IMG/VR virus record: IMGVR_UViG_2690316152_000008
Location: 1-12,720 of that record
DNA: 12,720 nt
DNA from: a virus
Lineage: Duplodnaviria; Heunggongvirae; Uroviricota; Caudoviricetes
Direction: 5' to 3' (one strand)
The translations under genes were made by a program, and so were the position numbers. The first letter of the stretch is position 1. Each line of letters begins with the position of its first letter. This document shows, piece after piece, positions 1 through 12,720 of this stretch. Under the pieces are notes generated by a model that worked only from the letters and a program-made list of their open reading frames with translations, searched no databases and was not told the origin of the DNA.

Positions 1-40
1 GATTTACAGCGGCAAGTTTTACTTCAAATGAATGTTTCAT
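1..40 (-). CDS. 5' end of an unidentified CDS running off the window edge (N-terminus MKHSFEVKLAAVN...)
   Basis: ATG at 40..38 on minus strand, preceded by AAGGTG 6 nt upstream; open to position 1. Only 13 codons visible. Alternative reading: the 3' end of a plus-strand gene stopping at 40-42 (TAA). Cannot be resolved from this window. Confidence 0.25.
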   Translation of the reverse strand, partial: MKHSFEVKLAAVN

Positions 41-92
41 AAACTGCACCTTCAGATGTCAGATTATGTCCAACATTTGGGGTGCAGTTCAA

Positions 93-157
93 TCAGCGTC
101 GCATCAGGCATCCTGCTCAAATGCCGGATGCGGCGTAAACGCCTTATCCTGCCTACA
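93..157. repeat. REP (repetitive extragenic palindromic) element pair downstream of cpxA
   Basis: GCCGGATGCGGCGTAAACGCCTTATCCTGCCTACA at 123-157 matches the enterobacterial REP consensus; an inverted partial copy (GCGTCGCATCAGGCATCCTGC) lies at 96-116. A further hairpin GCGGAGTTTAACTCCGC at 160-176 overlaps the cpxA stop codon. Confidence 0.7.
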
Positions 158-166
158 ATGCGGAGT

Positions 167-1540
167 TTAACTCCGCTTATACAGCGGCAACCAAATCACC
201 AGCCGTAAACCGCCCAGCGGGCTGTCTTCTGCTTTAACCCAGCCGCGATGCTGCTGAATGGCGGTTTCAACAATCGCCAGCCCCAAACCTGTACCGCCAG
301 ATTCACGATCGCGTGCTTCATCGGTACGATAGAACGGACGGAAAATCTGTTCGCGATCTTCCGGGCTAACGCCAGGACCATCGTCGTCCACCGTAATGGT
401 GATACCGTCTTTATCTACCGCAAAGCCCACTTCAATCTTCGTATGGGAATAACGCAGAGCATTACGAACAATGTTTTCCAGCGCACTTTCCAGGGCGTTC
501 GGATTGCCGTACAGCGGCCACGGCCCAGGAGGGAAGTTAACTGTCAACGACTTGCCCATTTGCTCGGCTTCGAACGCCGCGTTATCCAGCACTTCACTCC
601 ACAACTGATTGGCTTTGATGGTCTCGCTAACCAGCGCGTTTTTTTGCTGATTACGTGACATCACCAACAGGTCGTTAATCATGCTGTCCAGACGTTGCGC
701 TTCGGTTTCAATACGCTCCAGTTCCTTGCTTTCACCGCTACGACGGCGCAGTAACGCCGTACCCAGTTGTAGACGCGTCAGCGGGGTGCGCAGCTCGTGA
801 GAGATATCAGAAAGCAGACGCTGCTGAGAGGTCATCATGCGCTCCAGCGCGGTGACCATCTGGTTAAAACTGGCACCAGCGGCAAGGAATTCCTGTGGCC
901 CCGCTTCAAGTTCCGGGTGCTGGCGTAAGTTTCCCTGGGCAACTTCATCGGCAGCGTTTTTCAGCTTACGCGCCGGTTTTGCCAGACTCCAGGCCAACCA
1001 CAACAGCAGCGGCGTACTGACCAACATGGTGACAATCAGCAGTAATAGCGGGCGGTCAAACAGTAAGTTAATGAAATCGGATTGAGAACTGCTGGCCGGA
1101 CGAATCAGATAAAGTTGGTAATTATCTTCGCCATCACGCACGGAGAACGGACCGACCAGTTCCACGCGGCCATACTTTTTCTTCTGCGGATGATCGGCGT
1201 TATCGGCCTGACCAATAAAGTTACGAATGATCTGCATTTCGCTGCGTTCAGCGCCGATCACGCGGCCTTCGGTGGTCACCAATAACAAACGCTGTCCTGG
1301 CGGTGCCCACTTATCAATCGCCCGGAACAGACGCCGCCACCACATTAAATCGTTGGGCGGATCGTTCGCCAGCTCCGCTTCGACATGCTGCTCAATCATC
1401 AGACCCTGACGCTGTTCGCTATCCAGAAGCTCGGTCATCTGGCGTGAATCGAGCTTGGGTAACATCAAAACCAACATCAACACCAGCGCCAGCGTCAGCC
1501 AGAAGATGGCGAAGATGCGCGCGGTTAAGCTGCCTATCAT
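167..1540 (-). CDS. cpxA: Two-component sensor histidine kinase CpxA (457 aa)
   Basis: ORF translation has two N-terminal TM segments, an H-box (SHELRTPLTRL) and G-box (GGTGLGLAIV); length and sequence recognised as enterobacterial CpxA; 4-bp ATGA overlap with the upstream response regulator gene. Confidence 0.97.
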   Translation of the reverse strand: MIGSLTARIFAIFWLTLALVLMLVLMLPKLDSRQMTELLDSEQRQGLMIEQHVEAELANDPPNDLMWWRRLFRAIDKWAPPGQRLLLVTTEGRVIGAERSEMQIIRNFIGQADNADHPQKKKYGRVELVGPFSVRDGEDNYQLYLIRPASSSQSDFINLLFDRPLLLLIVTMLVSTPLLLWLAWSLAKPARKLKNAADEVAQGNLRQHPELEAGPQEFLAAGASFNQMVTALERMMTSQQRLLSDISHELRTPLTRLQLGTALLRRRSGESKELERIETEAQRLDSMINDLLVMSRNQQKNALVSETIKANQLWSEVLDNAAFEAEQMGKSLTVNFPPGPWPLYGNPNALESALENIVRNALRYSHTKIEVGFAVDKDGITITVDDDGPGVSPEDREQIFRPFYRTDEARDRESGGTGLGLAIVETAIQQHRGWVKAEDSPLGGLRLVIWLPLYKRS

Positions 1541-2235
1541 GAAGCAGAAACCATCAGATAGCCGCGACCACGCAAGGTTTTAAACCATGGGTGACCATCT
1601 TTACGATCCGGCAGTTTACGACGCAGGTTGGAAATGTGCATATCGATAGCGCGGTCGAAGGGCGTCAGGCGTTTGCCCAGCACTTCCTGGCTTAAATGTT
1701 CACGGGAAACCACCTGACCCAGATGCTGTGCCAGCAAATAGAGCAGGGTAAACTCAGTGCCGGTTAACTCCAGCGTTTGCCCGTCGAAGCTGGCTTCCTG
1801 ACGGCCTGGATTCAGCACTAAGGCATCAACTTCAAGCGTCGGTGAACCGTTGTCGTTGTTTTGCTGTTGCTCGCTCCAGTGCGAACGGCGCAGGATCGCG
1901 CGAATACGTGCCACCAGCTCACGATCATTAAACGGTTTCGGGAGATAGTCATCTGCGCCCAGCTCAAGGCCGAGAACGCGATCAAGTTCACTGCCGCGCG
2001 CCGTCAACATAATGACAGGCGTCTGGTGTGTCTGGCGAAGTGCTTTTAATGTGTCGATACCATTTTTCTTCGGCATCATTACATCAAGCAAAAGTAAATC
2101 AATGCTGTCGTCCAGAAGATCAAGCGCCTGTTCCCCATCGTGGGCAACAATCACGTTGAAGCCTTCCATCTCGAGCAGCTCCTTTAATAGGGAAGTCAGC
2201 TCTCGGTCATCATCAACTAACAGGATTTTATTCAT
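1537..2235 (-). CDS. cpxR: OmpR-family response regulator CpxR (232 aa)
   Basis: Receiver domain (LLVDDD...LLLLDVMMP...K) plus winged-helix C-terminus; recognised as CpxR; GGAGG SD upstream of the ATG at 2235; operon partner of cpxA. Confidence 0.97.
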   Translation of the reverse strand: MNKILLVDDDRELTSLLKELLEMEGFNVIVAHDGEQALDLLDDSIDLLLLDVMMPKKNGIDTLKALRQTHQTPVIMLTARGSELDRVLGLELGADDYLPKPFNDRELVARIRAILRRSHWSEQQQNNDNGSPTLEVDALVLNPGRQEASFDGQTLELTGTEFTLLYLLAQHLGQVVSREHLSQEVLGKRLTPFDRAIDMHISNLRRKLPDRKDGHPWFKTLRGRGYLMVSAS

Positions 2236-2384
2236 TGTTTAAATACCTCCGAGGCAGAAATTACGTCATCAGACGTCGCTAATCCATGACTTTACGTTGT
2301 TTTACACCCCCTGACGCATGTTTGCAGCCTGAATCGTAAACTCTCTATCGTTGAATCGCGACAGAAAGATTTTGGGAGCAAATG
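2236..2384. promoter_or_regulatory. Divergent cpxRA / cpxP promoter region with a CpxR box
   Basis: Minus-strand GTAAA-ACAAC-GTAAA (plus 2291-2305, TTTACGTTGTTTTAC) matches the CpxR consensus GTAAA-N5-GTAAA; a second half-site GTAAA lies at 2336-2340; sits between divergent cpxR and cpxP starts. Confidence 0.75.
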
Positions 2385-2885
2385 ATGCGCATAGTTACCG
2401 CTGCCGTCATGGCCTCAACGCTGGCAGTCAGTTCATTAAGCCACGCTGCTGAAGTCGGTTCAGGCGATAACTGGCATCCGGGTGAAGAACTTACGCAGCG
2501 CAGTACGCAGAGCCATATGTTCGACGGCATAAGTTTAACCGAACATCAGCGTCAGCAGATGCGAGATCTTATGCAACAGGCCCGGCACGAACAGCCTCCT
2601 GTTAATGTTAGCGAACTGGAGACAATGCATCGCCTTGTCACCGCAGAAAATTTTGATGAAAACGCTGTGCGCGCACAGGCAGAAAAAATGGCGAACGAGC
2701 AAATAGCTCGTCAGGTTGAGATGGCAAAAGTCCGCAACCAAATGTATCGCCTGTTAACGCCGGAGCAGCAAGCGGTTTTAAACGAGAAACATCAACAACG
2801 AATGGAGCAGTTGCGCGACGTGACGCAATGGCAAAAAAGTTCATCGTTGAAGCTATTGAGTAGTAGCAACTCACGTTCCCAGTAG
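2385..2885 (+). CDS. cpxP: Periplasmic Cpx-pathway protein CpxP (166 aa)
   Basis: Signal peptide ([21 protein letters not shown]) and LTxxQ-type repeats ([18 protein letters not shown]). The track ORF starts at tandem ATG 2382; the second ATG (2385) has better spacing from GGGAG (2374-2378) and gives a 166-aa product. Confidence 0.93.
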
Positions 2886-2925
2886 TAAACCCTGTTTTCC
2901 TTGCCATAGACACCATCCCTGTCTT

Positions 2926-2952
2926 CCCCCACATGATGTGGGGGTTTTTTTT
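2926..2952 (+). terminator. Rho-independent terminator of cpxP
   Basis: Perfect inverted repeat CCCCCACAT-g-ATGTGGGGG (2926-2944) followed by T8 (2945-2952). Confidence 0.8.
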
Positions 2953-3037
2953 ATCAATTACTTACATGCAATCAAAAGTAAAAACAGGTACTTATCGAAA
3001 GCTGTAAGGGGTTGGAGCGGTTTCAAAATTTCTTGAG

Positions 3038-3058
3038 TGTGGACACTATGTGGACACT
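3038..3058. repeat. Tandem direct repeat TGTGGACACT x2 beside the integrase 3' end; candidate arm-type Int binding sites of the attachment region
   Basis: TGTGGACACT at 3038-3047 and 3049-3058 (11-bp register), 14 bp from the int stop codon. Interpretation as arm sites is by analogy to lambdoid/P2 att architecture. Confidence 0.4.
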
Positions 3059-3071
3059 CAGAGGGGGAAAT

Positions 3072-4052
3072 TTATAACGTCACTCCGCCTTTTAGTGGAT
3101 TCAGAGCGACGGCATTTTGCAGATAGTCAGGCGCAAGGTGCGCATAGGCCATCGTCTGCTGAATGCTCGCATGTCCCAGAATCTGTTGCAGTGCGATTAT
3201 ATTGCCCCCATTCATCATGAAATGGCTTGCGAATGTATGCCGCAGGATGTGGGTTGCCTGATTGGGTGGTATATCAGGTTTCACTCTGCGTAAAATCCCG
3301 CAAAATTTCTCATAATCAACTTTGAATAATTTGGCGCTGGCCTCCTCTTTAACTTTTTTCTCCAGTTCCTCAGAAATCGGCACGGTTCGCTTTTTACCGT
3401 TTTTGGTTTTCAGGAAGGTAACCCTGCAATTTGTAATCTGTGCTGGTTTTAGCGTGGCAACTTCCGTCTATCTTCCTCCAGTGCTCAGACATAAAAGCGC
3501 GACAAGTAAGTCATCACCAGCCAAAACATTTAACAGTTTTTCGATTTCTGCTTTTTCCAGGAACGTCATTTCAGGGTTGGCCTCCGCCAGTGGCGGCAGT
3601 CCGTGAATTGGGTGTTGCCCAGAAAATTCATCCAATTGAATTAATTTTGTGAACATGCCGGATAATCGGTACATGTCACGGTTTATCGTTGCGGCACTGA
3701 TACCATCACGTAGTCGCATGGAACGATAATCCATCAAAGCCCTTTTGCTCATCCTGCTCACTGGTATATCACCTATGCCGCTGATGGTTTTGAGTAGATG
3801 ATTAAACTCTTTTGTTCCATGCTCGTGGTTTTGCCCGTGATATTTCCACCAGATGTCCAGCAACTCACTCAAAGTCCGGCGGTCTGCTCGCTGGCCTCCC
3901 CATTCTTTCTGACTGGCATTGGCGATTGTGTATCGCTCAAATGCTAGTGCTTCAGCTTTTCTTTCGAATTTCCTGCGGATGCGTTTTCCGTCGCGACCGC
4001 GAGGTCTAATGTCCACTTCATAGCGACCATCATCGAGCTTCTTAATTGCCAT
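3072..4052 (-). pseudogene. int: P2-type tyrosine integrase interrupted by one in-frame amber codon (TAG at 3470..3468)
   Basis: Track ORFs 3468..4082 and 3072..3383 are in the same frame. Read-through translation gives ...LCLSTGGR*TEVATLK...KTKNGKKRTVPISEEL...HILRHTFASHFMMNGG...LGHASIQQTMAYAH, i.e. box I Arg, HxxR and catalytic Tyr of a tyrosine recombinase. The stop sits where Trp is usual (STGxRW); plus-strand 3468-3470 is CTA. Likely true start is ATG 4052 (GGAGG 8 nt upstream, N-terminus MAIKKLDDGRYEV). Confidence 0.8.
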
Positions 4053-4121
4053 AAGAAAGCCCTCCGGCGCTGTATTCACCATCTTGGTAGCAAATGGTGA
4101 AAATGTAATCTTTATATAGAG

Positions 4122-4415
4122 TTAGCCAATCCTTTTTGCGGAGTGGTTGGACTCTGTTGACTCTGGCCCAATGTGCGCGAGAGCCGGTGCGATTTGTCCT
4201 GCGTCCGGCGCGGTTTTATCTGTCATAAGCCATAGAGCATATTTTTGGAATGTGGGATGCATAGTGATTTTTAGCAAAGCTGTGCCACCGGGTTCAAAGT
4301 TTCCTCCTTCATATTTTTTAAGTGTGCTTAGCGGTAACTCTATGATTTCACAGAATTTTGATTGGCTTAGCCCTTCAGCCTCACGCAAGGCCTTAATCTT
4401 TTCGCTTAATTTCAT
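4122..4415 (-). CDS. C: Prophage immunity repressor, P2 C-like (97 aa)
   Basis: Small protein with an N-terminal helix-turn-helix-like segment (LSQSKFCEIIELPLSTLKKYE), immediately upstream of and co-directional with int, divergent from cox, as in P2 C-int. Symbol assigned by synteny and size, not by search. Confidence 0.75.
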   Translation of the reverse strand: MKLSEKIKALREAEGLSQSKFCEIIELPLSTLKKYEGGNFEPGGTALLKITMHPTFQKYALWLMTDKTAPDAGQIAPALAHIGPESTESNHSAKRIG

Positions 4416-4536
4416 TTGACATGGTGCCTATATAGGGACTAAATTCCCTCAAAACTGGAACCTATATAGGTTCCATTGATTTGAGAATAAACCAGCGTCT
4501 AAACGGTTTTGAGTGGTTTAGAAAGGGCTGGATCCT
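4416..4536. promoter_or_regulatory. Lysis-lysogeny switch region with candidate early promoter and operator palindromes
   Basis: TTGACA at 4416-4421 with TAAATT at 4440-4445 (18-bp spacer) on the plus strand; 10-bp palindrome CCTATATAGG at 4427-4436 and again at 4461-4470 (extended to an 18-bp perfect palindrome GGAACCTATATAGGTTCC, 4457-4474); related CCATATATGG at 4546-4555. Confidence 0.5.
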
Positions 4537-4824
4537 ATGAGGGTACCATATATGGACGCTGAAAATTATGTGATTCAGTATCCGCTTGATGCGGTTCATG
4601 TGGATAAATTTGCTGATTTATTAGGGAAGCCAAAGACAGCCGTCAGTGAAATGGTGAAGGCAAATAAATTACCAATTATTGAATTGCGTGATCCTTGCAA
4701 ACCGAAGGCTCGTGCCGGTGAAAAATGGGTTTTCATTCCTGAGTTTAATCGCGCTGTACGTGAGGCGTTTTATAACCGACCGGTTGAACAGCGTGATGCA
4801 TGGCTTTTGTGGATGGGGTTGTGA
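4537..4824 (+). CDS. cox: Cox-like excisionase / switch regulator (95 aa; 90 aa if started at ATG 4552)
   Basis: First gene of the rightward early operon, divergent from the repressor; small basic protein ending ...RDAWLLWMGL. Start ambiguous: ATG 4537 or ATG 4552 (GAGGG 9 nt upstream). Confidence 0.7.
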   Translation: MRVPYMDAENYVIQYPLDAVHVDKFADLLGKPKTAVSEMVKANKLPIIELRDPCKPKARAGEKWVFIPEFNRAVREAFYNRPVEQRDAWLLWMGL

Positions 4825-4826
4825 TT

Positions 4827-4997
4827 ATGAATGAGCCGCGTTGTATTGCTCAGTTACTGCGTAACGAAAGCCCCAGGGCGATTGACTTCACCATCACCCA
4901 CGGGAAGGGTCGCAAGGGAATCATTATCCGCACCAAAAAACAGAGTCCGTTAAAAAAGGCTCTGACCTTTCTGAAAAGCCGGAGGGTCTGGAAATGA
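4827..4997 (+). CDS. Small early-operon protein (56 aa), in the position of P2 orf78
   Basis: ATG at 4827 lies 3 nt after the cox stop; the track's longer version starts at 4800 inside cox; stop overlaps the next gene's start (ATGA at 4994-4997). Confidence 0.45.
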   Translation: MNEPRCIAQLLRNESPRAIDFTITHGKGRKGIIIRTKKQSPLKKALTFLKSRRVWK

Positions 4998-5494
4998 CAG
5001 TGATGACGCTCAATCTCGTTGAAAAACAGCCAGCAGCTATGCGCCGGATAATTGGTAAGCATCTGGCCGTCCCTCGCTGGCAGGAAACATGCGATTATTA
5101 TAATCAGATGATGGAACGCGAACGGCTAACGGTTTGCTTCCATGCGCAGTTAAAACAGCGTCACGCAACGATGCGTTTTGAAGAAATGAACGACGTCGAA
5201 CGTGAACGGCTGGTTTGTGCAATTGATGAACTGCGTGGGGCATTCTCAAAACGCCGTCAGGTCGGTGCAAGTGAGTATGCATATATTAGCTTTTTAACTG
5301 TCAGTCAGCGCCGTACTTTATTTATGCATGCGGGATTGACTGAAAAAGAATTCAACCAGCCATACTGGCGAATTAATGAAGAGTCATGTTACTGGCGTGA
5401 TGCTTTATTTCGTGCGTTACGTGAATTATTCAGTCTGTTTGAGTATGCGCCGACAATTCTGACGTCGGTAAAACCAGAGCAATATCTGCATTAA
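4994..5494 (+). CDS. Early replication protein, P2 gpB-like by position and length (166 aa)
   Basis: GGAGGG SD at 4981-4986, 7 nt before the ATG; same length as P2 B and same place in the early operon. Assignment by synteny only. Confidence 0.7.
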   Translation: MTVMTLNLVEKQPAAMRRIIGKHLAVPRWQETCDYYNQMMERERLTVCFHAQLKQRHATMRFEEMNDVERERLVCAIDELRGAFSKRRQVGASEYAYISFLTVSQRRTLFMHAGLTEKEFNQPYWRINEESCYWRDALFRALRELFSLFEYAPTILTSVKPEQYLH

Positions 5495-5557
5495 GTAATT
5501 AACCAGAGTTTTTAACGCACTTAATCGTGCGGGGCTTCTTTTTGCCTGGAGAAAGTC

Positions 5558-5782
5558 ATGCATACAGTTTCTGAAAATCAGTGCGGTATATACGCATTAC
5601 TGCTGCAACAGGCCAGAACTGAAGCACAGGCCGACGCTGCGACGCGCTTTTCTTCTCATCTTGACGCCATGATTCGCCACATCACAAAGGCGGAGTTATC
5701 CCGCGTGGAGATAGTCGAGCTGCTCAGTCAGGAGTCGGAAAAATTTCACAATATCGGATTGTCTCGCGGGGAGGTGCTTTGA
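5558..5782 (+). CDS. Hypothetical early protein (74 aa)
   Basis: ATG with GGAGAAAG upstream; stop TGA overlaps the next start by 1 nt (TGATG). Confidence 0.6.
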
Positions 5783-6084
5783 TGTCCTGTTCTCGTTCAG
5801 TTGTATTACTGAATAACGCCTTAAAAATCGCCGTTATGGAGAATGGCGATTTGTCTCTTATTCAACTTAGGTTTGATAAAGAAAAACGCGAAATAACTGA
5901 ATCTGTTTTCGCGATTTATCAGAACGAATTAAATCTCCTGTCTGATGTGGTCAATTTACTTGTTAAACGCGCTGTATTTCATAAGCAAATTTCATCCGTG
6001 GATGAACTGACAAAATTAACGACAGAAATCGCCAGCTATTGCGCTGATGAATTTAAGAAGCTGAACGACAAAAGGAGCTGGTAA
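5782..6084 (+). CDS. Hypothetical early protein (100 aa from ATG 5782)
   Basis: GGGAGGTG at 5768-5775, 6 nt before ATG 5782; the track start at 5779 is a TTG one codon upstream; stop TAA overlaps the next ATG (TAATG at 6082-6086). Confidence 0.6.
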   Translation: MSCSRSVVLLNNALKIAVMENGDLSLIQLRFDKEKREITESVFAIYQNELNLLSDVVNLLVKRAVFHKQISSVDELTKLTTEIASYCADEFKKLNDKRSW

Positions 6085-6308
6085 TGCCGGACAACGTAGA
6101 TTTTATTCAGGAACAACAGGCTGAATTACTGGAGCGCCAGATTAATGCGGCAAGGGTAAAACATTGCGGTGCTTCTGCGCTGGTTTGCGAAGAGTGTGAC
6201 GCGCCAATACCTGCTGCCCGTCGTGCGGCTTATCCGTCAGCCACGCGTTGTGTTTCCTGTCAGTCAGTCTTTGAAGCAAAAAACAAACATTACCGGAGAA
6301 CGGCATGA
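6084..6308 (+). CDS. TraR/DksA-family C4 zinc-finger protein (74 aa)
   Basis: CEEC-x17-CVSC spacing in the translation (C-x2-C-x17-C-x2-C) is typical of the phage/plasmid TraR-DksA zinc finger; AAGGAG 6 nt upstream; ATGA overlap with the next gene. Confidence 0.75.
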   Translation: MPDNVDFIQEQQAELLERQINAARVKHCGASALVCEECDAPIPAARRAAYPSATRCVSCQSVFEAKNKHYRRTA

Positions 6309-6580
6309 GTATTCGTATTGAAATTGGCGAACGTTATGTCGTTACCAGTGACAGCTTTCAGTTTATTCTCCACGAGAAAAAGAGAGCTGAAAGCGGTAAA
6401 AACGCCGGTCAGGAATGGCTGGCGGTGGTTGGTTATTACCCGAAATTAAGCCAGCTCGTTTCCGGCCTGATGCATCACGATATTCTGACCGGAAGCGCAA
6501 AGTCTTTTGCTGATTTAAACGCGCAGGTTGAGCAACTCAGCAAGCGTTGTTCAGAGGCTTTTGGCTCATATGGCCGTTAA
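6305..6580 (+). CDS. Hypothetical early protein (91 aa)
   Basis: GGAG 6 nt upstream of ATG 6305; stop TAA 6578-6580 overlaps the start region of gene A. Confidence 0.6.
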   Translation: MSIRIEIGERYVVTSDSFQFILHEKKRAESGKNAGQEWLAVVGYYPKLSQLVSGLMHHDILTGSAKSFADLNAQVEQLSKRCSEAFGSYGR

Positions 6581-8846
6581 AGCCTCCGGGCGTTTTGTCC
6601 CTCCGTCAGCATTTGCCGCAGGCACCGGTGAGACGTTTACCGGTGCTTATGCATGGAACGCGCCACGCGAGGCCGTCGGGCGAGAAAGACCTCTTACACG
6701 TGACGAGATGCGTCAGGTGCAAGGTGTTTTATCCACGATTAACCGCCTGCCTTACTTTTTGCGCTCGCTGTTTACTTCACGCTATGACTACATCCGGAGC
6801 AATAAAAGTCCGGTACACGGGTTTTATTTCCTCACATCCACTTTTCAGCGTCGTTTATGGCCGCGTATTGAGCGTGTGAATCAGCGCCATGAAATGAACA
6901 CCGACGCGTCGTTGCTGTTTCTGGCAGAGCGTGACCACTATGCGCGCCTGCCAGGAATGAATGACAAGGAGCTGAAAAAGTTTGCCGCCCGTATCTCATC
7001 GCAGCTTTTCATGATGTATGAGGAACTCTGCGATGCCTGGGTGGATGCGCATGGCGAAAAAGAATCGCTGTTTACGGATGAGGCGCAGGCTCACCTGTAT
7101 GGTCATGTTGCTGGCGCTGCACGTGCTTTCAATATTTCCCCTCTCTACTGGAAAAAATACCGTAAAGGACAGATGACCACGAGGCAGGCATATTCTGCCA
7201 TTGCCCGCCTGTTTAACGATGAGTGGTGGATTAGTCAGCTTAAAGGCCAGCGTATGCGCTGGCATGAGGCGTTACTGATTGCTGTCGGGGAGGTCAATAA
7301 AGACCGTTCACCTTATGCCAGTAAACATGCCATTCGTGATGTGCGTGCGCGCCGCCAGGCAAATCTGGAATTTCTTAAATCGTGTGACCTTGAAAACAGG
7401 GAAACCGGCGAGCGCATCGACCTTATCAGTAAGGTGATGGGCAGTATTTCTAATCCTGAAATTCGCCGGATGGAGCTGATGAACACCATTGCCGGTATTG
7501 AGCGTTACGCCGCATCAGAGGGTGATGTGGGGATGTTTATCACGCTTACCGCGCCGTCAAAGTATCACCCGACACGTCAGGTTGGAAAAGGCGAAAATAA
7601 AACCGTCCAGCTTAATCACGGCTGGAATGATGAGGCATTTAATCCAAAGGATGCGCAGCGTTATCTCTGTCGTATCTGGAGCCTGATGCGCACGGCATTC
7701 AAGGATAATGATTTACAGGTCTACGGTTTGCGAGTCGTCGAGCCACACCACGACGGAACGCCGCACTGGCATATGATGCTTTTTTGTAATCTACGCCAGC
7801 GTAACCAGATTATCGAAATCATGCGTCGCTATGCGCTCAAAGAGGATGGCGACGAAAGAGGAGCCGCGCGAAACCGTTTTCAGGCAAAACACCTTAACCG
7901 GGGCGGTGCTGCGGGATATATCGCGAAATACATTTCAAAAAATATCGACGGCTATGCACTGGATGGTCAGCTCGATAACGATACCGGCAGACCGCTGAAA
8001 GATACTGCGGCGGCTGTTACCGCATGGGCGTCAACGTGGCGCATCCCGCAATTTAAAACGGTTGGCCTGCCGACAATGGGAGCTTACCGTGAGCTACGTA
8101 AATTGCCTCGCGGCGTCAGCATTGCTGATGAATTTGACGAACGCGTGGAGGCTGCACGCGCCGCCGCAGACAGTGGCGATTTTGCGCTGTATATCAGCGC
8201 GCAGGGCGGGGCAAATGTCCCGCGCGATTGTCAGACTGTCAGGGTCGCTCGTAGCCCGTCGGATGACGTTAACGAATACGAGGAAGAAGTCGAGAGAGTG
8301 GTCGGCATTTACGCGCCGCATCTCGGCGCGCGTCATATTCATATCACCAGAACGACGGACTGGCGCATTGTGCCGAAAGTTCCGGTCGTTGAGCCTTTGA
8401 CTTTAAAAAGCGGCATCGCCGCGCCTCGGAGTCCTGTCAATAACTGTGGAAAGCTCACCGGCGGTAATACTTCGTTACCGGCTCCCTCGCCTTCTGAGCA
8501 CGCCGCAGCAGTGCTTAATCTGGTTGATGACGGTGTTATCGAATGGAATGACCCGGAGGTCGTGAGGACGCTCAGGGGTGCATTAAAGCACGGCCTGAAA
8601 ATACCAAATCGTCAGCAAAGAAACGGAAGCCCGTTAAAACCACATGAAATAGCACCGTCGGCCAGGCTGACCCGGTCGGAACGATTGCAAATTACCCGTA
8701 TCCGCGTTGATCTCGCTCAGAACGGTATCAGGCCGCAACGATGGGAGCTTGAGGCGCTGGCGCGTGGCGCGACCGTAAATTATGACGGGAAACCTTTCAC
8801 TTATCAGGTCGCTGATGATTGGCCGGGATTTTTGTTACCCATTTGA
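6570..8846 (+). CDS. A: Rolling-circle replication initiator endonuclease, P2 gpA family (758 aa from ATG 6570)
   Basis: Translation contains an HUH-type motif (TPHWHMMLF) and paired tyrosines spaced by 3 residues (GYIAKYISK), the hallmarks of RCR initiators of the P2 A type; large size; last gene of the early operon. The track start at 6528 is a TTG; in-frame ATG 6570 gives a P2-A-like length. Confidence 0.9.
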   Translation: MAVKASGRFVPPSAFAAGTGETFTGAYAWNAPREAVGRERPLTRDEMRQVQGVLSTINRLPYFLRSLFTSRYDYIRSNKSPVHGFYFLTSTFQRRLWPRIERVNQRHEMNTDASLLFLAERDHYARLPGMNDKELKKFAARISSQLFMMYEELCDAWVDAHGEKESLFTDEAQAHLYGHVAGAARAFNISPLYWKKYRKGQMTTRQAYSAIARLFNDEWWISQLKGQRMRWHEALLIAVGEVNKDRSPYASKHAIRDVRARRQANLEFLKSCDLENRETGERIDLISKVMGSISNPEIRRMELMNTIAGIERYAASEGDVGMFITLTAPSKYHPTRQVGKGENKTVQLNHGWNDEAFNPKDAQRYLCRIWSLMRTAFKDNDLQVYGLRVVEPHHDGTPHWHMMLFCNLRQRNQIIEIMRRYALKEDGDERGAARNRFQAKHLNRGGAAGYIAKYISKNIDGYALDGQLDNDTGRPLKDTAAAVTAWASTWRIPQFKTVGLPTMGAYRELRKLPRGVSIADEFDERVEAARAAADSGDFALYISAQGGANVPRDCQTVRVARSPSDDVNEYEEEVERVVGIYAPHLGARHIHITRTTDWRIVPKVPVVEPLTLKSGIAAPRSPVNNCGKLTGGNTSLPAPSPSEHAAAVLNLVDDGVIEWNDPEVVRTLRGALKHGLKIPNRQQRNGSPLKPHEIAPSARLTRSERLQITRIRVDLAQNGIRPQRWELEALARGATVNYDGKPFTYQVADDWPGFLLPI

Positions 8847-9106
8847 GTAAAAATACAGCGTGATTTTATATGTCTTTGAATGGATTATGCGAAGCACCTC
8901 TAAGGTAGATGAGGAGCAATAGCGTGTTGAATCAGAAGGCTAAATTGTATTGAATCGTTAGCATGTAATTGAAGGCAGCTATTTGATTCGAGTCATAAAA
9001 GAGCATCTATTTCGGTTAATAAAACCATTGCGAGTGACTTTATGTCGAAGCATAATTCATCTCGAGCGAAGTCTTGCTAGTCTTTCATCGGATTGATGAC
9101 GGGCGC

Positions 9107-9136
9107 AAAAAAACCACCCTGGCAGGTGGTTTTTTT
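9107..9136. terminator. Bidirectional rho-independent terminator
   Basis: A7 (9107-9113), stem ACCACC / GGTGGT (9113-9118 / 9125-9130) with loop CTGGCA, then T7 (9130-9136). Works for the plus-strand early transcript and for the minus-strand small ORF. Confidence 0.7.
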
Positions 9137-9148
9137 GTTTGAAGCATA

Positions 9149-9262
9149 CTAAAGAAAAATACTTACATGGATATTACTGACGTTTACTGACAAACCACTC
9201 GGACTACCATATGGATAGCCAAAGAGGGCCAGAACGAGAATGCAGTAATAGCACTTCTTCAT
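9149..9262 (-). CDS. Small hydrophobic protein, 37 aa (MKKCYYCILVLALFGYPYGSPSGLSVNVSNIHVSIFL); candidate small membrane peptide
   Basis: Not in the ORF track (<60 aa). Perfect AGGAGG (plus 9267-9272) 4 nt upstream of ATG 9262..9260; stop TAG at 9151..9149; the bidirectional terminator follows 13 nt downstream. No homology claimed. Confidence 0.3.
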   Translation of the reverse strand: MKKCYYCILVLALFGYPYGSPSGLSVNVSNIHVSIFL

Positions 9263-9918
9263 ATCGCCTCCTGTAAGCAGAGGGCAATTTCCGCCGATAT
9301 ATGCGCTTCTAAGGCGGAGTGACTATTGAGCGAAGTCTTGCCCTGAAATAATGCTCTGTTTAAACGCAAAGTGATCTGGCATATCACCGAACAGAGGACC
9401 TGAACAACACAATATATAGTATGTCGTTGTTTCTGGTTGCATTTTATGTTGTGTAATACTGGTTTTGCATCAAGGATGTTTGAGCTTTTTTTGATATAGC
9501 TCAAAGTAAAAAGCAGAGACTACGGATGATAAGGTCTTGAAAGCAATGTAAATTTTTTAAAGTTGTGAGTGGCTAGAAATGCACAGTTTCAATATGGCGG
9601 ATTTAAACAAGTAATTAAAAATAGCGCCATAAATTCCAATAAAATCATTATGTTGCGTTTTCTGTGGAAGCTGCGGTGACTCTGAAATTTTCTTTTAGTG
9701 TCGCTGAGGTTTAACAACTCGCTGCGCAAGTAGTTAGTGTTTTTTTAACTCAATGTTCTGATTTATAAGGTTTTTTATAAATCGTGGGCTGATTGCGCGT
9801 ATTCATCTCGTGTTATCAGCAAAGATAAGCGCTATATGCAGAACTGAATGCATATATGATGTCGAAAATGTTATGGGAAAACGTGGATTAGTGTTATAGT
9901 AATGGCTGAAAAACAGCC

Positions 9919-9947
9919 TTGACATAAAATAACAACTGTGATATGGC
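9919..9947 (+). promoter_or_regulatory. Candidate sigma-70 promoter for the ImmA-like gene
   Basis: Perfect -35 TTGACA at 9919-9924; weak -10 candidates ATATGG / TATGGC at 9941-9947 (16-17 bp spacer); 37-45 nt upstream of the ATG. Confidence 0.4.
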
Positions 9948-9983
9948 TGTGCATACTTAACTTTTTTAACGTAGGAGGCAACC

Positions 9984-10469
9984 ATGAGCTATGCAGCTAA
10001 AAAACTGCTTGACCGCTATTGGGATCGCCGACTACCTGTCGATCCGTTTAAGCTTGCTAAAGCGTGGGGTGCTCGTGTTGAAGCACTTGAGGAATCGGCT
10101 TATAACAACGATGGGTTAAGCGGTCTGGCTGTCATCAAAAAGGGTGTCCATAGGATTTATTTTGATTCTAGTGAACATTCTAATCGTCAACGTTTTACTG
10201 TTGCACACGAGTTAGGTCATCATGTGCTGGGGCATACCCAGGACGGAGAGTACCATCGGGATAATGTCGGGAATTATTCAACAGGTGCTCGTGATTACCG
10301 TGAGGTTGAAGCAAACAAGTTTGCTGCTGAGTTGTTAATGCCTGAGTCTGCTATACGTCAATTGGTATCCAGAGAAGGTATTGATAGCACTTTGAGATTA
10401 GCAAGCATCTTTAATGTATCAGAAGCCGCTATGCATTGGCGCTTAAAGAGCTTAGGAATGGCTTATTAA
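9984..10469 (+). CDS. ImmA/IrrE-family (peptidase M78 / COG2856-like) zinc metallopeptidase, 161 aa
   Basis: HEXXH motif in TVAHELGHHVLGH with a downstream Glu-rich segment (EVEANKFAAELLMPE), typical of ImmA/IrrE-type proteases; AGGAGG at 9973-9978, 5 nt before the ATG. No adjacent HTH partner gene. Confidence 0.85.
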   Translation: MSYAAKKLLDRYWDRRLPVDPFKLAKAWGARVEALEESAYNNDGLSGLAVIKKGVHRIYFDSSEHSNRQRFTVAHELGHHVLGHTQDGEYHRDNVGNYSTGARDYREVEANKFAAELLMPESAIRQLVSREGIDSTLRLASIFNVSEAAMHWRLKSLGMAY

Positions 10470-10497
10470 TTAGCCTTTAACTTTTAACCTGTTTAAA

Positions 10498-10535
10498 ATC
10501 ACCTTTACGTTTGTACATGTAAGGGTGATTTTTTT
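10498..10535 (+). terminator. Strong hairpin plus T-run between the peptidase and membrane-protein genes; terminator/attenuator that also sequesters the downstream SD
   Basis: Stem ATCACCTTTA (10498-10507) pairs with TAAGGGTGAT (10520-10529), 10 bp with one G.U, 12-nt loop, then T6 (10530-10535) directly abutting ATG 10536. The right arm TAAGGGTGAT is itself the SD-like sequence of the next gene. Confidence 0.55.
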
Positions 10536-11135
10536 ATGGCTGATATTGATTTATCTGGACAGTCCCCAGAGCAAGGAACCACTCCTAAGGGCGATTTAGA
10601 TCCTGATATCCTTATAAGGCGAGATAGACGGGATGGTATAGAGCGTAGAAGTATGCGATTAGTGCTCTCTGCCGTTGTGCTTTGTTTTGCTTGTACATTT
10701 CTATGGCAGGGGCTTAACTTTGCTTTGGCTGTTGGAAATGGCTTGCTGGAAGCGAAAAGCAGTATTGCCACAGCGATAACACAAAAAGTAGATGCACAAA
10801 CTTGTGTTTCAGCAGAAAAATGTTCTGCTTTATCTGCGGATCCGAAGATGGCTGATGAGAGGATAACACCATCTTCAGACACTAATAAAGTTAGAAAATC
10901 TATTTCTGGTTTATCCACCGATTGGTTATCGGCCAGTTCTCTAATAGCTATTGTTGCATTCATCCTTGGTGTGGGTTTAACTTTGCTTTTGACTCTTCTT
11001 AAATCAGCATTTCAACACCCGACAGATAAAGACTTTAGAACAAAGTCGACATCTAATACTATTGAGTTGGCCACGCCAATCAGTGAATTAATAATTGGTG
11101 TTCTGAATATAATTAAAGACAAACTATCTAAGTAA
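10536..11135 (+). CDS. Two-transmembrane-segment membrane protein of unknown function (199 aa)
   Basis: Charged N-terminus (RRDRRDGIERR) followed by hydrophobic helices LVLSAVVLCFACTFLWQGLNFALAV and LIAIVAFILGVGLTLLLTLL; ends at a convergent terminator. Overlapping minus-strand ORF 10505..10963 judged spurious. Confidence 0.7.
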   Translation: MADIDLSGQSPEQGTTPKGDLDPDILIRRDRRDGIERRSMRLVLSAVVLCFACTFLWQGLNFALAVGNGLLEAKSSIATAITQKVDAQTCVSAEKCSALSADPKMADERITPSSDTNKVRKSISGLSTDWLSASSLIAIVAFILGVGLTLLLTLLKSAFQHPTDKDFRTKSTSNTIELATPISELIIGVLNIIKDKLSK

Positions 11136-11176
11136 AGCATTAGTTGTGATTTTTTATTGGTTTTAGTGATAATACA

Positions 11177-11210
11177 TCTCCAGTACTTATTGTTACTGGA
11201 GAGTATTTTT
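11177..11210. terminator. Convergent terminator hairpin between the membrane-protein gene and the 313-aa gene
   Basis: 9-bp stem TCTCCAGTA / TACTGGAGA (11177-11185 / 11194-11202), 8-nt loop, followed by GTATTTTT on the plus strand; 16 nt from the minus-strand gene stop. Confidence 0.55.
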
Positions 11211-11217
11211 AGTCGTT

Positions 11218-12159
11218 TTATATTTTTAATGTTAGTGAATGATATTCACGAGAGTTCACGTTCGATGTGATGTAATCGGGGGCGTTAACACCAAGAATCG
11301 CAACGAGCAATCGGCAAATTAAAGCCTGCATTTGTTGTAATATGTCATCTCCATATTGATAATTGTTAATAGTGGTAAAGCCAAGTGGTTGACCATGAAA
11401 CATAGCTTCATGAAAGTTTTCATTGCGGATGTTTGTAATGTTTTTTTTGCCTGTAACCCATGATGGTCGTGGTATGCCATAAGTTTTGCAGATCCACTTC
11501 AAGCGCCTGGAGTGATTTAGAGTCTTTTCTGTACACTTGTTCTTTTCTGCCCATGTTAAAGCAAAGCAACTATCCAGTGCCATATAAAGATACTGGAATT
11601 TTTCGAAGCTAAGGTATTGTGGGTTTTGGGATAAAAATAGTGCATGCACTATTGCTGCGATATTTATTGGTGCGTGTTTGGTTTTTTTCTCGCTAGACAT
11701 GTATTTGAGTGCTAATTCTATAACCTCTTTTTCAGAGCACTTGACCAGAATAAAGTCAGTTAATTTGCTGGGTTTTATTGGGGTTGCGTCTAAAAAACCG
11801 GCATCAGTAGTTGTTAATCTTATCCCTTTGAAAAAAGACAGACACCACACAGCAAAATTGAGAGTTTCTAGTGAAGATGTATTTTTTAATTTTAGTGAGT
11901 GTGTTTTGGGTAAGCCAAATACTCGTTGGCTAAAAGGCATTGTGGATATGCCTCCATTGAGGTTATATACTTCTTGGTTTCCTGGGTATATCCAACCGTT
12001 AATAACATTTCTGTGATTGTTTATAAGATTTGTTTTTTCCGCTAGACCGGGTAAAGTAAGTAAAGAAAAATCATCAGTTTCAACGTTAACGTCTACTGGA
12101 TAGTATCCAAACTCAGCTTCAATATCATTGGATTGCTGTTCGTCAACTTTACCTTGCAT
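11218..12159 (-). CDS. 313-aa protein of unknown function with a C-terminal R-N-x3-H (HEPN-like) motif; candidate abortive-infection effector
   Basis: Long AT-rich ORF; GGAG 6 nt upstream of ATG 12159..12157; motif IRNENFHEAMFHG near the C-terminus matches the HEPN R-[NHQ]-x3-H signature. Family not recognised. Confidence 0.8.
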   Translation of the reverse strand: MQGKVDEQQSNDIEAEFGYYPVDVNVETDDFSLLTLPGLAEKTNLINNHRNVINGWIYPGNQEVYNLNGGISTMPFSQRVFGLPKTHSLKLKNTSSLETLNFAVWCLSFFKGIRLTTTDAGFLDATPIKPSKLTDFILVKCSEKEVIELALKYMSSEKKTKHAPINIAAIVHALFLSQNPQYLSFEKFQYLYMALDSCFALTWAEKNKCTEKTLNHSRRLKWICKTYGIPRPSWVTGKKNITNIRNENFHEAMFHGQPLGFTTINNYQYGDDILQQMQALICRLLVAILGVNAPDYITSNVNSREYHSLTLKI

Positions 12160-12186
12160 ACATTGCTCCGGTCAAAAATAGGCTAG

Positions 12187-12216
12187 ATAATTCTCGTAAG
12201 CCTATCATGTTCGCAA
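12187..12216 (-). promoter_or_regulatory. Candidate promoter for the 313-aa gene
   Basis: Minus-strand TTGCGA (plus 12216..12211) and AATTAT (plus 12192..12187) with 18-bp spacer, about 30 nt upstream of the start codon; weak match. Confidence 0.3.
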
Positions 12217-12396
12217 AGTATCCATACCTGTGGATTTTGTAAATTTAAGTTGATTTGTCATTAAATAAGCCGTGCATGCAACAAGTGAATGTTTTTGCAT
12301 GCGTCGGGGATGCCCGTTCCGGCTGCTTGCGGTCAGAGCTGGTGCGGATCCATAGTATCTAAGCAACTGCATTAAAACCGCCCTATGAAGCGGGCG

Positions 12397-12415
12397 GGCG
12401 AGGCGGGGAAAGCAC
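12397..12415. other. P2/186/P4-type cos site (19-nt cohesive-end sequence GGCGAGGCGGGGAAAGCAC)
   Basis: Exact 19-mer at 12397-12415, embedded in a GC-rich region with GGTGCGG-type repeats, between the accessory island and the portal-like gene. Confidence 0.8.
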
Positions 12416-12556
12416 TGCGCGCTGGCGGTGGTGCGGATTTTATTTTTTCAGCGTCTGAGCGCGTCGTGACGGCGTTTAGTCTGCCCGTTGGGGGTTGGTG
12501 TGTCTGCGGGATGTTTTGTGCGGTGGTGAGCGTGTGAGGGCGTGATGACGGGGTGT

Positions 12557-12578
12557 AAAAAAGCCGCCCGCAGGCGGC
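12557..12578 (-). terminator. Rho-independent terminator of the portal-like gene
   Basis: On the minus strand GCCGCC-TGCG-GGCGGC followed by T6 (plus A6 at 12557-12562), 5 nt after the stop codon. Confidence 0.7.
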
Positions 12579-12583
12579 GATGT

Positions 12584-12720
12584 TCAGCCGTTGTCTGTGT
12601 CCAGTGAGTAGTTTTTAAAGCGGATAACCTCCTGACCGAGCCAGCCGTTTATTTCCCGAATCCTGTCCTGTAACGGGATAAGCTCATTGCGGACAAAGAC
12701 CTTTGCCACTTTCTCAATAT
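12584..12720 (-). CDS. 3' end of a capsid portal-like gene (P2 Q position), continuing beyond the window
   Basis: Open frame from the window edge to stop TGA (plus 12584-12586), C-terminus ...RIREINGWLGQEVIRFKNYSLDTDNG; its 3' end faces cos as P2 Q does. Assignment by synteny only. Confidence 0.55.
   Translation of the reverse strand, partial: IEKVAKVFVRNELIPLQDRIREINGWLGQEVIRFKNYSLDTDNG

Follow-up and report, generated by a model that had tools for sequence, protein, structure and literature searches.

The window analysed here is the whole of a 12,720-nucleotide (nt) stretch from a tailed phage (Caudoviricetes; IMG/VR record IMGVR_UViG_2690316152_000008, positions 1 to 12,720), and our subject is the interval 8847-12396, which separates the replication gene A of a P2-like phage from its cohesive end site (cos). 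This interval holds the gene of an ImmA/IrrE-type protease (family M78), a gene for a protein with two transmembrane helices (2TM), and ORF313 on the opposite strand. To the left of these lies a conserved region with a hydrophobic open reading frame (ORF) of 37 amino acids (aa). Gene A, a 772-aa replication endonuclease ORF on the plus strand, has its stop at 8846 and is named P2-type replication endonuclease A in identical Escherichia coli and phage records. On the other side, the last base of the linear genome record OQ383618 (Salmonella phage MET_P1_103_31) corresponds to window position 12415, and in the identical E. coli locus cos is followed by the portal and terminase genes, which are encoded on the minus strand. 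The limits that an initial annotation had given to the island, from the first base past the A stop to the last base ahead of cos, are exact.

The interval differs from its surroundings in base composition and in gene content. Its GC content is 0.390, whereas it reaches 0.496 over positions 1-8846, 0.530 in gene A and 0.559 in 12397-12720, and the lowest-GC segment of 3550 nt in the entire sequence starts at 8751. GC at third codon positions is 0.36, 0.29 and 0.33 in the three cargo genes, against 0.54 in A and 0.61 in one backbone ORF. GC is back at the backbone value (0.52) from 12261. These comparisons bear out the earlier impression of an AT-rich island whose genes are unrelated to replication or morphogenesis; they encode the M78 peptidase, the 2TM protein and a candidate HEPN-like product. 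The accompanying claim of a separate promoter and terminator for every gene held in part: the promoter and ribosome-binding site (RBS) of the M78 gene are conserved and two bidirectional terminators are present, but generic consensus scans gave counts close to chance, with 13 promoter-like sites where 9.0 +/- 2.9 were expected and 7 terminator-like sites where 3.3 +/- 1.7 were. A search of Rfam at permissive E-values gave sub-threshold, chance-level matches only (RNAI at 27.8 bits, with a threshold of 47), and no tRNA-like or Rfam family at threshold.

The interval is the known gpA-gpQ/cos accessory-gene hotspot of P2-like phages, at the tin/old position. The P2 tin/old locus was reportedly treated by Odegrip in 2006. 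The gpA-gpQ locus, where P2 carries tin and old, has been described as a hotspot in which gene content is diverse and defence systems occur, 1,650 arrangements of genes having been counted among 18,150 loci (Rousset 2022, PMC9122126), and the same locus has been named 'P2 defence hotspot #1' (Vassallo 2022, PMC9519451). The hotspot reading, proposed from the sequence before any database was consulted, is thus correct and already established. With the P2 tin/old hotspot the island shares its position immediately left of cos, AT-richness, high variability and a multi-system cargo; it differs in having no tin, no old and no validated system. Its arrangement WP_001517496 + WP_024165494 + WP_000119270 (hypothetical + hypothetical + Peptidase_M78) is catalogued in Table S5 of Rousset 2022, as is the two-gene form 'Peptidase_M78 + hypothetical'. 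Identifying the hotspot therefore restates a published fact about P2-like phages, and its practical value is as a pointer to uncharacterised cargo.

We surveyed 5426 complete E. coli genomes and 50,697 phage records for the island and its parts. A similar 3' end of the A gene occurs in 1714 of the 5426 genomes. The full cargo was found in 46 of these 1714, some part of the island in 187 genomes, and any part of it in 8 of the phage records. Copies of the island are at least 99% identical in 45 genomes of unrelated sources. The same cargo is thus not carried by most P2-like phages, and elsewhere the site holds other genes or no annotated genes, so that these genes are accessory rather than core. 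Alignment with P2-like prophages, which had been proposed as a check, revealed the expected cargo turnover. However, the stretch 8847-9607 proved to be a conserved unit and not freely exchanged cargo. This unit is not universal, being present in 150 of the 5426 genomes versus the 1714 with a similar A gene.

Pairwise mapping located the edges of the exchanged DNA. In many P2-like prophages and IMG/VR contigs, 8847-9607 is joined straight to 12261-cos, and in a second junction class 8847-9689 is joined to 12245-cos. Gene-less prophages, in which RefSeq has no gene from A to the portal gene, share the first 760-840 nt and the last ~140 nt of the interval; the insert proper therefore runs from ~9608/9690 to 12244/12260. 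The motif TTAAA is present on both sides of the 9607|12261 junction, which suggests exchange at short AT-rich microhomology.

The slot to the right of 8847-9607 also takes other cargo, for example an AAA ATPase gene in E. coli W, and P2-like prophages carry AAA ATPase, DUF2158 with ORF226, or ASCH genes at the hotspot. The parts of the island likewise occur separately. OU784750 shares 8847-10567, including the protease gene, followed by a diverged 2TM gene, and is without ORF313. In P2-EC67-type prophages ORF313 is the sole shared part, adjoining DUF2158 and ORF226, and in NZ_CP135244 the protease-2TM pair is located after an ASCH gene. Three units, each assorting independently of the others, make up this mosaic island. 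We consider it highly probable that this is the known P2-like hotspot with foreign AT-rich cassettes swapped at a fixed point, occupied here by a three-unit mosaic of candidate defence cargo (Table 1). Cassettes would be exchanged by recombination at a point between the ~760-nt left unit and the ~136-nt cos-proximal backbone, and each of the three units would be expressed from its own signals in the lysogen.

Table 1. Features between gene A and cos, with window coordinates.
Feature	Position	Strand	Basis or remarks
AT-rich spacer, fast-diverging, directly past the A stop	8847-9040		75-88% identity between copies; no notable ORF
Candidate small RNA unit: promoter-like TTGCGA-17-CATAAT at 9028-9056; predicted ~75-nt transcript starting GAGCGAAGTCTTGC (9064-9077) and ending in terminator	9028-9137	+	Consensus scan and fold
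Rho-independent terminator, bidirectional, A7-CCACC-loop-GGTGG-T7	9104-9135	both	Sequence and fold; nearly invariant across copies
Hydrophobic small ORF, 37 aa, MKKCYYCILVLALFGYP..., GGAGG RBS at 9267-9271	9149-9262	-	ORF; annotated coding sequence in OQ383618
Putative 5' leader of small ORF, with second 14-mer copy (9328-9341) and predicted hairpin pairing GGAGG	9263-9345	-	Repeat search and folds
AT-rich filler at left insert edge, GC 0.36, without coding potential	9608-9864		Gene-less prophages break at 9607 or 9689
Promoter/leader of M78-2TM operon: -35 TTGACA 9919-9924, TG 9939-9940, -10 TATGGC 9942-9947, RBS AGGAGG 9973-9978	9865-9983	+	12-cassette alignment
ImmA/IrrE-type M78 zinc metallopeptidase, 161 aa, peptidase domain only, HELGH at residues 75-79	9984-10469	+	Pfam PF06114, 3.8e-21
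14-bp hairpin with T-run, ending 3 nt ahead of the 2TM start codon	10495-10532	+	Inverted repeat; folds in 12+ cassettes
Two-transmembrane-helix (2TM) protein, 199 aa	10536-11135	+	phrog_8096 only (function-less)
Terminator hairpin, bidirectional, between convergent 2TM and ORF313 genes	11177-11202	both	Terminator-like on both strands
313-aa protein (= ORF313 of P2-EC67), beta-rich N-domain and C-terminal helical domain that may be HEPN-like	11218-12159	-	phrog_5937 only
ORF313 upstream region: GGAG RBS 8 nt ahead of ATG; promoter-like ATGACA-16-CAAAAT at 12261-12234	12160-12260	-	Sequence, consensus scan
cos-proximal backbone, GC 0.52, not cargo	12261-12396		Kept at 91-97% identity in P2-like prophages with no genes or other cargo at the hotspot
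P2-type cos, 19 nt, GGCGAGGCGGGGAAAGCAC	12397-12415		Read from sequence

The M78 protein is related to well-characterised repressor-cleaving proteases. It matches the PADLOC capP profile (1.1e-30, profile positions 8-153 of 242), phrog_87 and the CapP structure 7t5t in the PDB (7.6e-7); PGAP names it 'ImmA/IrrE family metallo-endopeptidase', and there is a weak NCBIfam match to a 'repressor/antitoxin' family. ImmA, IrrE and CapP cleave a neighbouring helix-turn-helix (HTH) repressor upon sensing DNA damage or single-stranded DNA, and CapP has a C-terminal GAF domain and a cysteine switch (PMC13228613). The window pair resembles ImmA/ImmR, IrrE/DdrO and CapP/CapH in its M78 zinc-peptidase domain with HExxH and in being a gene pair on a mobile element or beside immune genes; that their protease acts on the product of the neighbouring gene would be a further likeness. 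It differs in that the partner is a 2TM membrane protein and not an XRE/HTH repressor, with the protease gene first. The 161-aa protease also differs from CapP in having no GAF or HTH domain and no cysteine switch; its sequence contains no cysteine. No HTH ORF adjoins the M78 gene within 1 kb on either strand. Because HTH gene, GAF domain and cysteine switch are all absent, M78-2TM is not a member of the CapP/CapH or ImmA/ImmR systems. The ORF list and PADLOC v2 likewise gave no retron, CBASS or CapH-type partner beside the protease.

Homology to M78 cassettes of other contexts begins at ~9865. The M78 promoter (17-nt spacer with TG; -10 TATGGC/TAAGGC) and the AGGAGG are conserved in 12 cassettes from different genomic contexts. 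Some 55 nt upstream of the -35 (9865-9918, ATGTTATGG..GGATTAGTGTTATAGTAATGGCTG) are also conserved across cassettes in unrelated contexts. This segment may be an operator or activator site of some regulator; no LexA-box-like sequence is evident within it.

Hydropathy and alignment give the 2TM protein a disordered N-tail, a first transmembrane helix (TM1) at about residues 38-64 and a C-terminal amphipathic helix. Among relatives, the N-tail is variable and of low complexity, ERRxMR precedes TM1, the second transmembrane helix (TM2) is near-invariant (DWLSASSLIAIVAFILGVGLTL), and an HPTD motif and the C-terminal amphipathic helix are conserved. The loop is variable, and only in the enterobacterial branch does it have two invariant cysteines. 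The family comprises 54 clusters at E <= 1e-3 among 1.84 billion representatives. Every 2TM relative with inspected context has an M78 gene (154-170 aa) directly upstream. These contexts include P2-like phages and prophages, a Pectobacterium prophage end beside the terminase gene, an Enterobacter plasmid-type contig, a Vibrio element flanked by serine recombinases, and another phage. The M78 gene is still upstream in two distant phage contigs whose 2TM proteins are only 28-30% identical. The reverse check agrees: three distant M78 homologues (45-51% identity) were inspected, one in a Mu-like Aeromonas phage, one in Klebsiella and one in a Pseudomonas aeruginosa prophage with an S24 repressor alongside, and each is followed by a 2TM-type gene whose product has recognisable TM2 and C-terminal motifs. 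A compact cassette in a P. aeruginosa prophage (L073, 2501-3434) encodes an M78 peptidase of 170 aa and a 2TM protein of 135 aa; the genes lie only 13 nt apart and the hairpin is missing. This cassette directly follows a Peptidase_S24 CI-type repressor gene and thus lies in the immunity region.

In the window, the two genes of the pair are separated by a hairpin that contains, within its 3' arm, the Shine-Dalgarno-like GGTGA of the 2TM gene. Across 11 diverse cassettes, 93.8% of cells were paired and 5 of the 14 pairs had changed on both sides. None of 500 shuffles reached this covariation score, and pairing collapses when the partner is slid by 1-3 columns. Vibrio, Aeromonas and Klebsiella have the same hairpin layout with unrelated stem sequences. 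We predict that the hairpin serves as an attenuator or translation lock on 2TM. The protease would then be made freely and the membrane protein kept very low, through both transcription and translation, which is the signature of a dangerous effector.

The central part of the left unit, 9041-9565 (~520 nt), is 90-100% identical between copies, compared with only 74-88% in the flanks (8847-9040 and 9566-9607). This part is without RefSeq annotation and is kept in P2-like prophages with a gene-less hotspot. Thus, gene-less hotspots retain a conserved small-peptide unit, which qualifies the counting of 'empty' states. The 37-aa ORF is intact in 23 of 23 full-length copies, with three variable residues. 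Compared with the most diverged class it shows four synonymous and five non-synonymous changes, a rough dN/dS of 0.4 from nine changes only. Searches of Pfam, PADLOC, PHROG and NCBIfam gave no family match for it, and neither inspection by eye nor scanning found a convincing minus-strand sigma-70 promoter. Two scans of GTDB species representatives yielded no more-diverged copies of the unit, and a degenerate coding pattern in IMG/VR gave the same narrow set. A TAG at 9320-9322 (minus strand) is AAG in the commonest diverged class, where an upstream 39-aa frame is fused to the 37-aa ORF to give 88-97 aa. This upstream frame is probably non-coding, because non-synonymous changes (8-13) far exceed synonymous ones (4-5) and stops come and go. 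In E. coli NMBU-W12E19, a degraded P2-like remnant has integrase and repressor genes adjoining a 5'-truncated A pseudogene, after which come the 8847-9689 unit, cos and an inserted ISKpn26. The small-ORF unit thus outlasts prophage decay. The conserved unit also contains an 8-bp inverted repeat, TTTGAGCT-N11-AGCTCAAA, at 9480-9505, without a T-run on either strand.

On the plus strand, the left unit has a candidate small RNA whose fold reaches -31.6 kcal/mol (z = -4.7 versus shuffles) and whose -10 hexamer is invariant in 23 copies. The terminator at its end probably also ends the early (A) transcript on the plus strand and the small-ORF transcript on the minus strand. The 14-nt sequence GAGCGAAGTCTTGC occurs as an exact direct repeat at 9064-9077 and 9328-9341, the second copy being 66 nt upstream of the 37-aa ORF, which is on the opposite strand. 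Given this repeat, the 5' end of the predicted ~75-nt plus-strand RNA would be complementary to 13-15 nt of the small-ORF mRNA leader. The 13-nt repeat core is invariant in both copies in all lineages; repeat boundaries shift between lineages, and no compensatory change was seen. RNAduplex pairing of small RNA and leader was equalled by 54 of 500 shuffles, with long spurious duplexes dominating. Only four real haplotypes cover the leader hairpin; among them, one change (G-C to A-U) is compensatory and another disrupts the pairing.

In some type I toxin-antitoxin loci, such as tisB/istR-1, zorO/orzO and shoB/ohsC, a small RNA pairs in trans. The left unit resembles such loci in its short hydrophobic ORF, its strong RBS and a nearby ~75-nt, terminator-ended RNA candidate that would be complementary to the leader ~66 nt upstream of the start. 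It differs in that the 37-aa ORF has no homology to known toxin families and in that no minus-strand promoter was identified. We speculate that the left unit, which would combine an early-operon terminator with a gene for a hydrophobic peptide, may be a type-I-toxin-like locus with a small RNA. The early-operon terminator alone could be a partial cause of its conservation. If the speculation is true, the 'empty' state of the P2 hotspot holds a type-I-toxin-like small peptide and a trans-pairing small RNA.

For the second unit (9865-11210), we propose that a minimal ImmA-like zinc protease would be made freely while 2TM would be held down by the RBS-burying, terminator-like hairpin. A phage-derived cue might cause the protease to cut the disordered cytoplasmic tail of 2TM, or to stop degrading 2TM. 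Freed 2TM would then damage the membrane and the infection would be aborted, as with RexAB or protease-activated pore formers. The parallel with lambda RexAB and bacterial gasdermin systems is that of a two-gene prophage cassette in which a cytoplasmic sensor or enzyme is combined with a small membrane effector that is kept off until infection. It is a functional analogy only, and activation by cleavage is our inference. Some anti-phage or toxin-antitoxin-like function of the cassette seems, by a small degree, probable. That the protease controls 2TM through tail cleavage or turnover, so that release of 2TM collapses the membrane and aborts infection, is a tentative proposal that falls short of probable. 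It is more doubtful still that M78-2TM represents a widely mobile and so far undescribed two-gene cassette for immunity or abortive infection, in which the protease gates a membrane-damaging 2TM and the hairpin additionally locks its synthesis.

Several observations weigh against these proposals. A defence role is suggested by the position of the cargo, but partition systems and cytolethal distending toxin are among the non-defence genes known from the hotspot (Rousset 2022, PMC9122126), so position alone is not proof of defence. Of the defence-annotation tools recommended in the initial annotation, PADLOC v2 matched the M78 domain to capP, RmrA and PDC-M69B, pointing to capP/RmrA-type regulators, but it returned no validated defence-system model, hence no recognised anti-phage system, among the cargo proteins, and nothing for the 2TM protein or ORF313. 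The M78-2TM arrangement appears in the locus catalogues of Rousset 2022 only and was not found in its Table S2 of experimentally evaluated systems. Known M78 members cut HTH repressors, not membrane proteins (PMC13228613), and no cleavage site was identified for the M78 protease. The AlphaFold2 model of 2TM (pLDDT 62; helices 25-87, 116-159 and 180-197) is too weak for a fold search. The hairpin could also be a plain terminator of the M78 gene.

Alternative roles for these cassettes can be weighed against the same evidence. They may be addiction or toxin-antitoxin modules that stabilise a prophage or plasmid, with 2TM or the small peptide as toxin, M78 or the small RNA as antidote, and no primary anti-phage role. 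The occurrence of M78-2TM on a plasmid and several kinds of mobile element would fit, as would the predicted tight lock on membrane-protein expression, the weak 'repressor/antitoxin' match of the M78 domain, and the type I-like architecture of small ORF and repeat. In addition, an M78-containing component, PD-lambda-2B, belongs to a toxin-antitoxin-like system (PMC9519451). Many toxin-antitoxin systems act against phage, however, so this role is compatible with abortive infection (PMC9519451), and a site in a defence-enriched hotspot favours defence; we judge pure addiction to be unlikely. M78 might instead be an ImmA-like anti-repressor that cleaves the phage repressor after DNA damage to induce its own prophage, 2TM being incidental. 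ImmA/ImmR, IrrE/DdrO and CapP/CapH are the characterised uses of the family (PMC13228613), the best PADLOC and PDB matches are to CapP, and the P. aeruginosa prophage homologue adjoins an S24 CI-type repressor. Nevertheless, no HTH gene is adjacent on either strand, the protease is without the GAF domain and cysteine switch of CapP, and the conserved partner is 2TM in every inspected context, including non-P2 phages and a plasmid. Nor is M78-2TM core lysogeny control, because the full island is present in only 46 of the 1714 genomes and the site is without annotated genes in some P2-like prophages. Anti-repression is thus very improbable.

A superinfection-exclusion or lysogenic-conversion protein is also conceivable, with 2TM blocking DNA entry by other phages and the protease maturing 2TM or turning it over. 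A predicted inner-membrane protein of a prophage, with a conserved TM2 and a periplasmic loop bearing an invariant cysteine pair in the enterobacterial subfamily, would suit this role, and its own sigma-70-type promoter suggests expression in the lysogen. Exclusion would be expected to involve constitutive synthesis, yet a conserved hairpin appears to lock translation. In addition, conservation is lowest in the periplasmic loop, and versions from Aeromonas, Vibrio and Klebsiella are without the cysteine pair. Exclusion therefore strikes us as distinctly unlikely. It is most improbable of all that the interval is decaying, horizontally acquired DNA without current function. AT-richness, long ORF-free stretches (8847-9148 and 9263-9983) and a frame upstream of the 37-aa ORF that is open in some copies and closed in others could be read that way. 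But the three large ORFs are intact, with no frameshifts or stops seen in the copies examined, their families keep invariant catalytic-type residues across genera, the regulatory hairpin covaries, and the island is at least 99% identical in 45 genomes from unrelated sources.

M78-2TM is rare, but its occurrences range across P2-like, Mu-like and other prophages as well as a plasmid, and its regulatory hairpin is cleanly conserved. These properties make it a compact, easily cloned candidate for a new protease-controlled membrane effector. If the proposal is true, the ImmA/IrrE/CapP protease family extends from repressor cutting to membrane-effector control.

The third unit (11218-12260, minus strand) consists of ORF313, previously deposited from P2-EC67, and the region upstream of it, 12160-12260, which accompanies the gene in P2-EC67-type prophages. 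There are 603 homologues, in Enterobacterales, Aeromonas, Pseudomonas, Acinetobacter and others. Residues R245, N246, H250 and E251 are invariant in a 40-sequence alignment (44-79% identity to the window protein), and the R-N-x3-H motif (R245...H250), encoded at 11410-11427, fits the HEPN R-x4-6-H motif. One UniRef cluster of a homologue is named 'Apea-like HEPN'. Pfam found no HEPN or other domain in any of the 40 homologues, and Foldseek found no match of the ORF313 model in the PDB. A borderline profile match to PDB sequences (E 0.011), between ORF313 residues ~240-284 and the first 45 residues of E. coli NrdB, is probably due to chance; the matched segments (…NDQLKEPMFFGQPV… and …NENFHEAMFHGQPL…) span the R-x4-H motif.

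The nearest known systems to ORF313 are the single-gene HEPN abortive-infection ribonucleases (RNases), namely ApeA, AbiV and HepT-type toxins. ApeA is ~580 aa long and predominantly helical, with three domains, and forms decamers or dodecamers (bioRxiv 10.64898/2026.01.26.701840). ORF313 differs in its 313 aa, its beta-rich N-domain and the absence of any PADLOC or Pfam HEPN_Apea match, and its size, architecture and lack of an ApeA or HEPN_Apea match rule it out as an ApeA member. The most likely prediction is a single-gene, activation-dependent HEPN-type RNase, in which a solitary enzyme with a sensor-like N-domain would cleave RNA once activated and so bring about single-gene abortive infection. 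We regard the HEPN RNase assignment itself as evenly balanced, and a role in defence as somewhat less assured. With hundreds of homologues across Gammaproteobacteria, ORF313 is a compact HEPN candidate encoded by a single gene. The gene has no conserved neighbour; it is solitary in Pseudomonas and in Aeromonas, and chromosomal in the latter. In P. aeruginosa (L045-L048, gene 4001-4960), a homologue resides on a mobile island with DUF932, ParB_N and OLD-family ATPase-TOPRIM genes, a setting that resembles a defence island.

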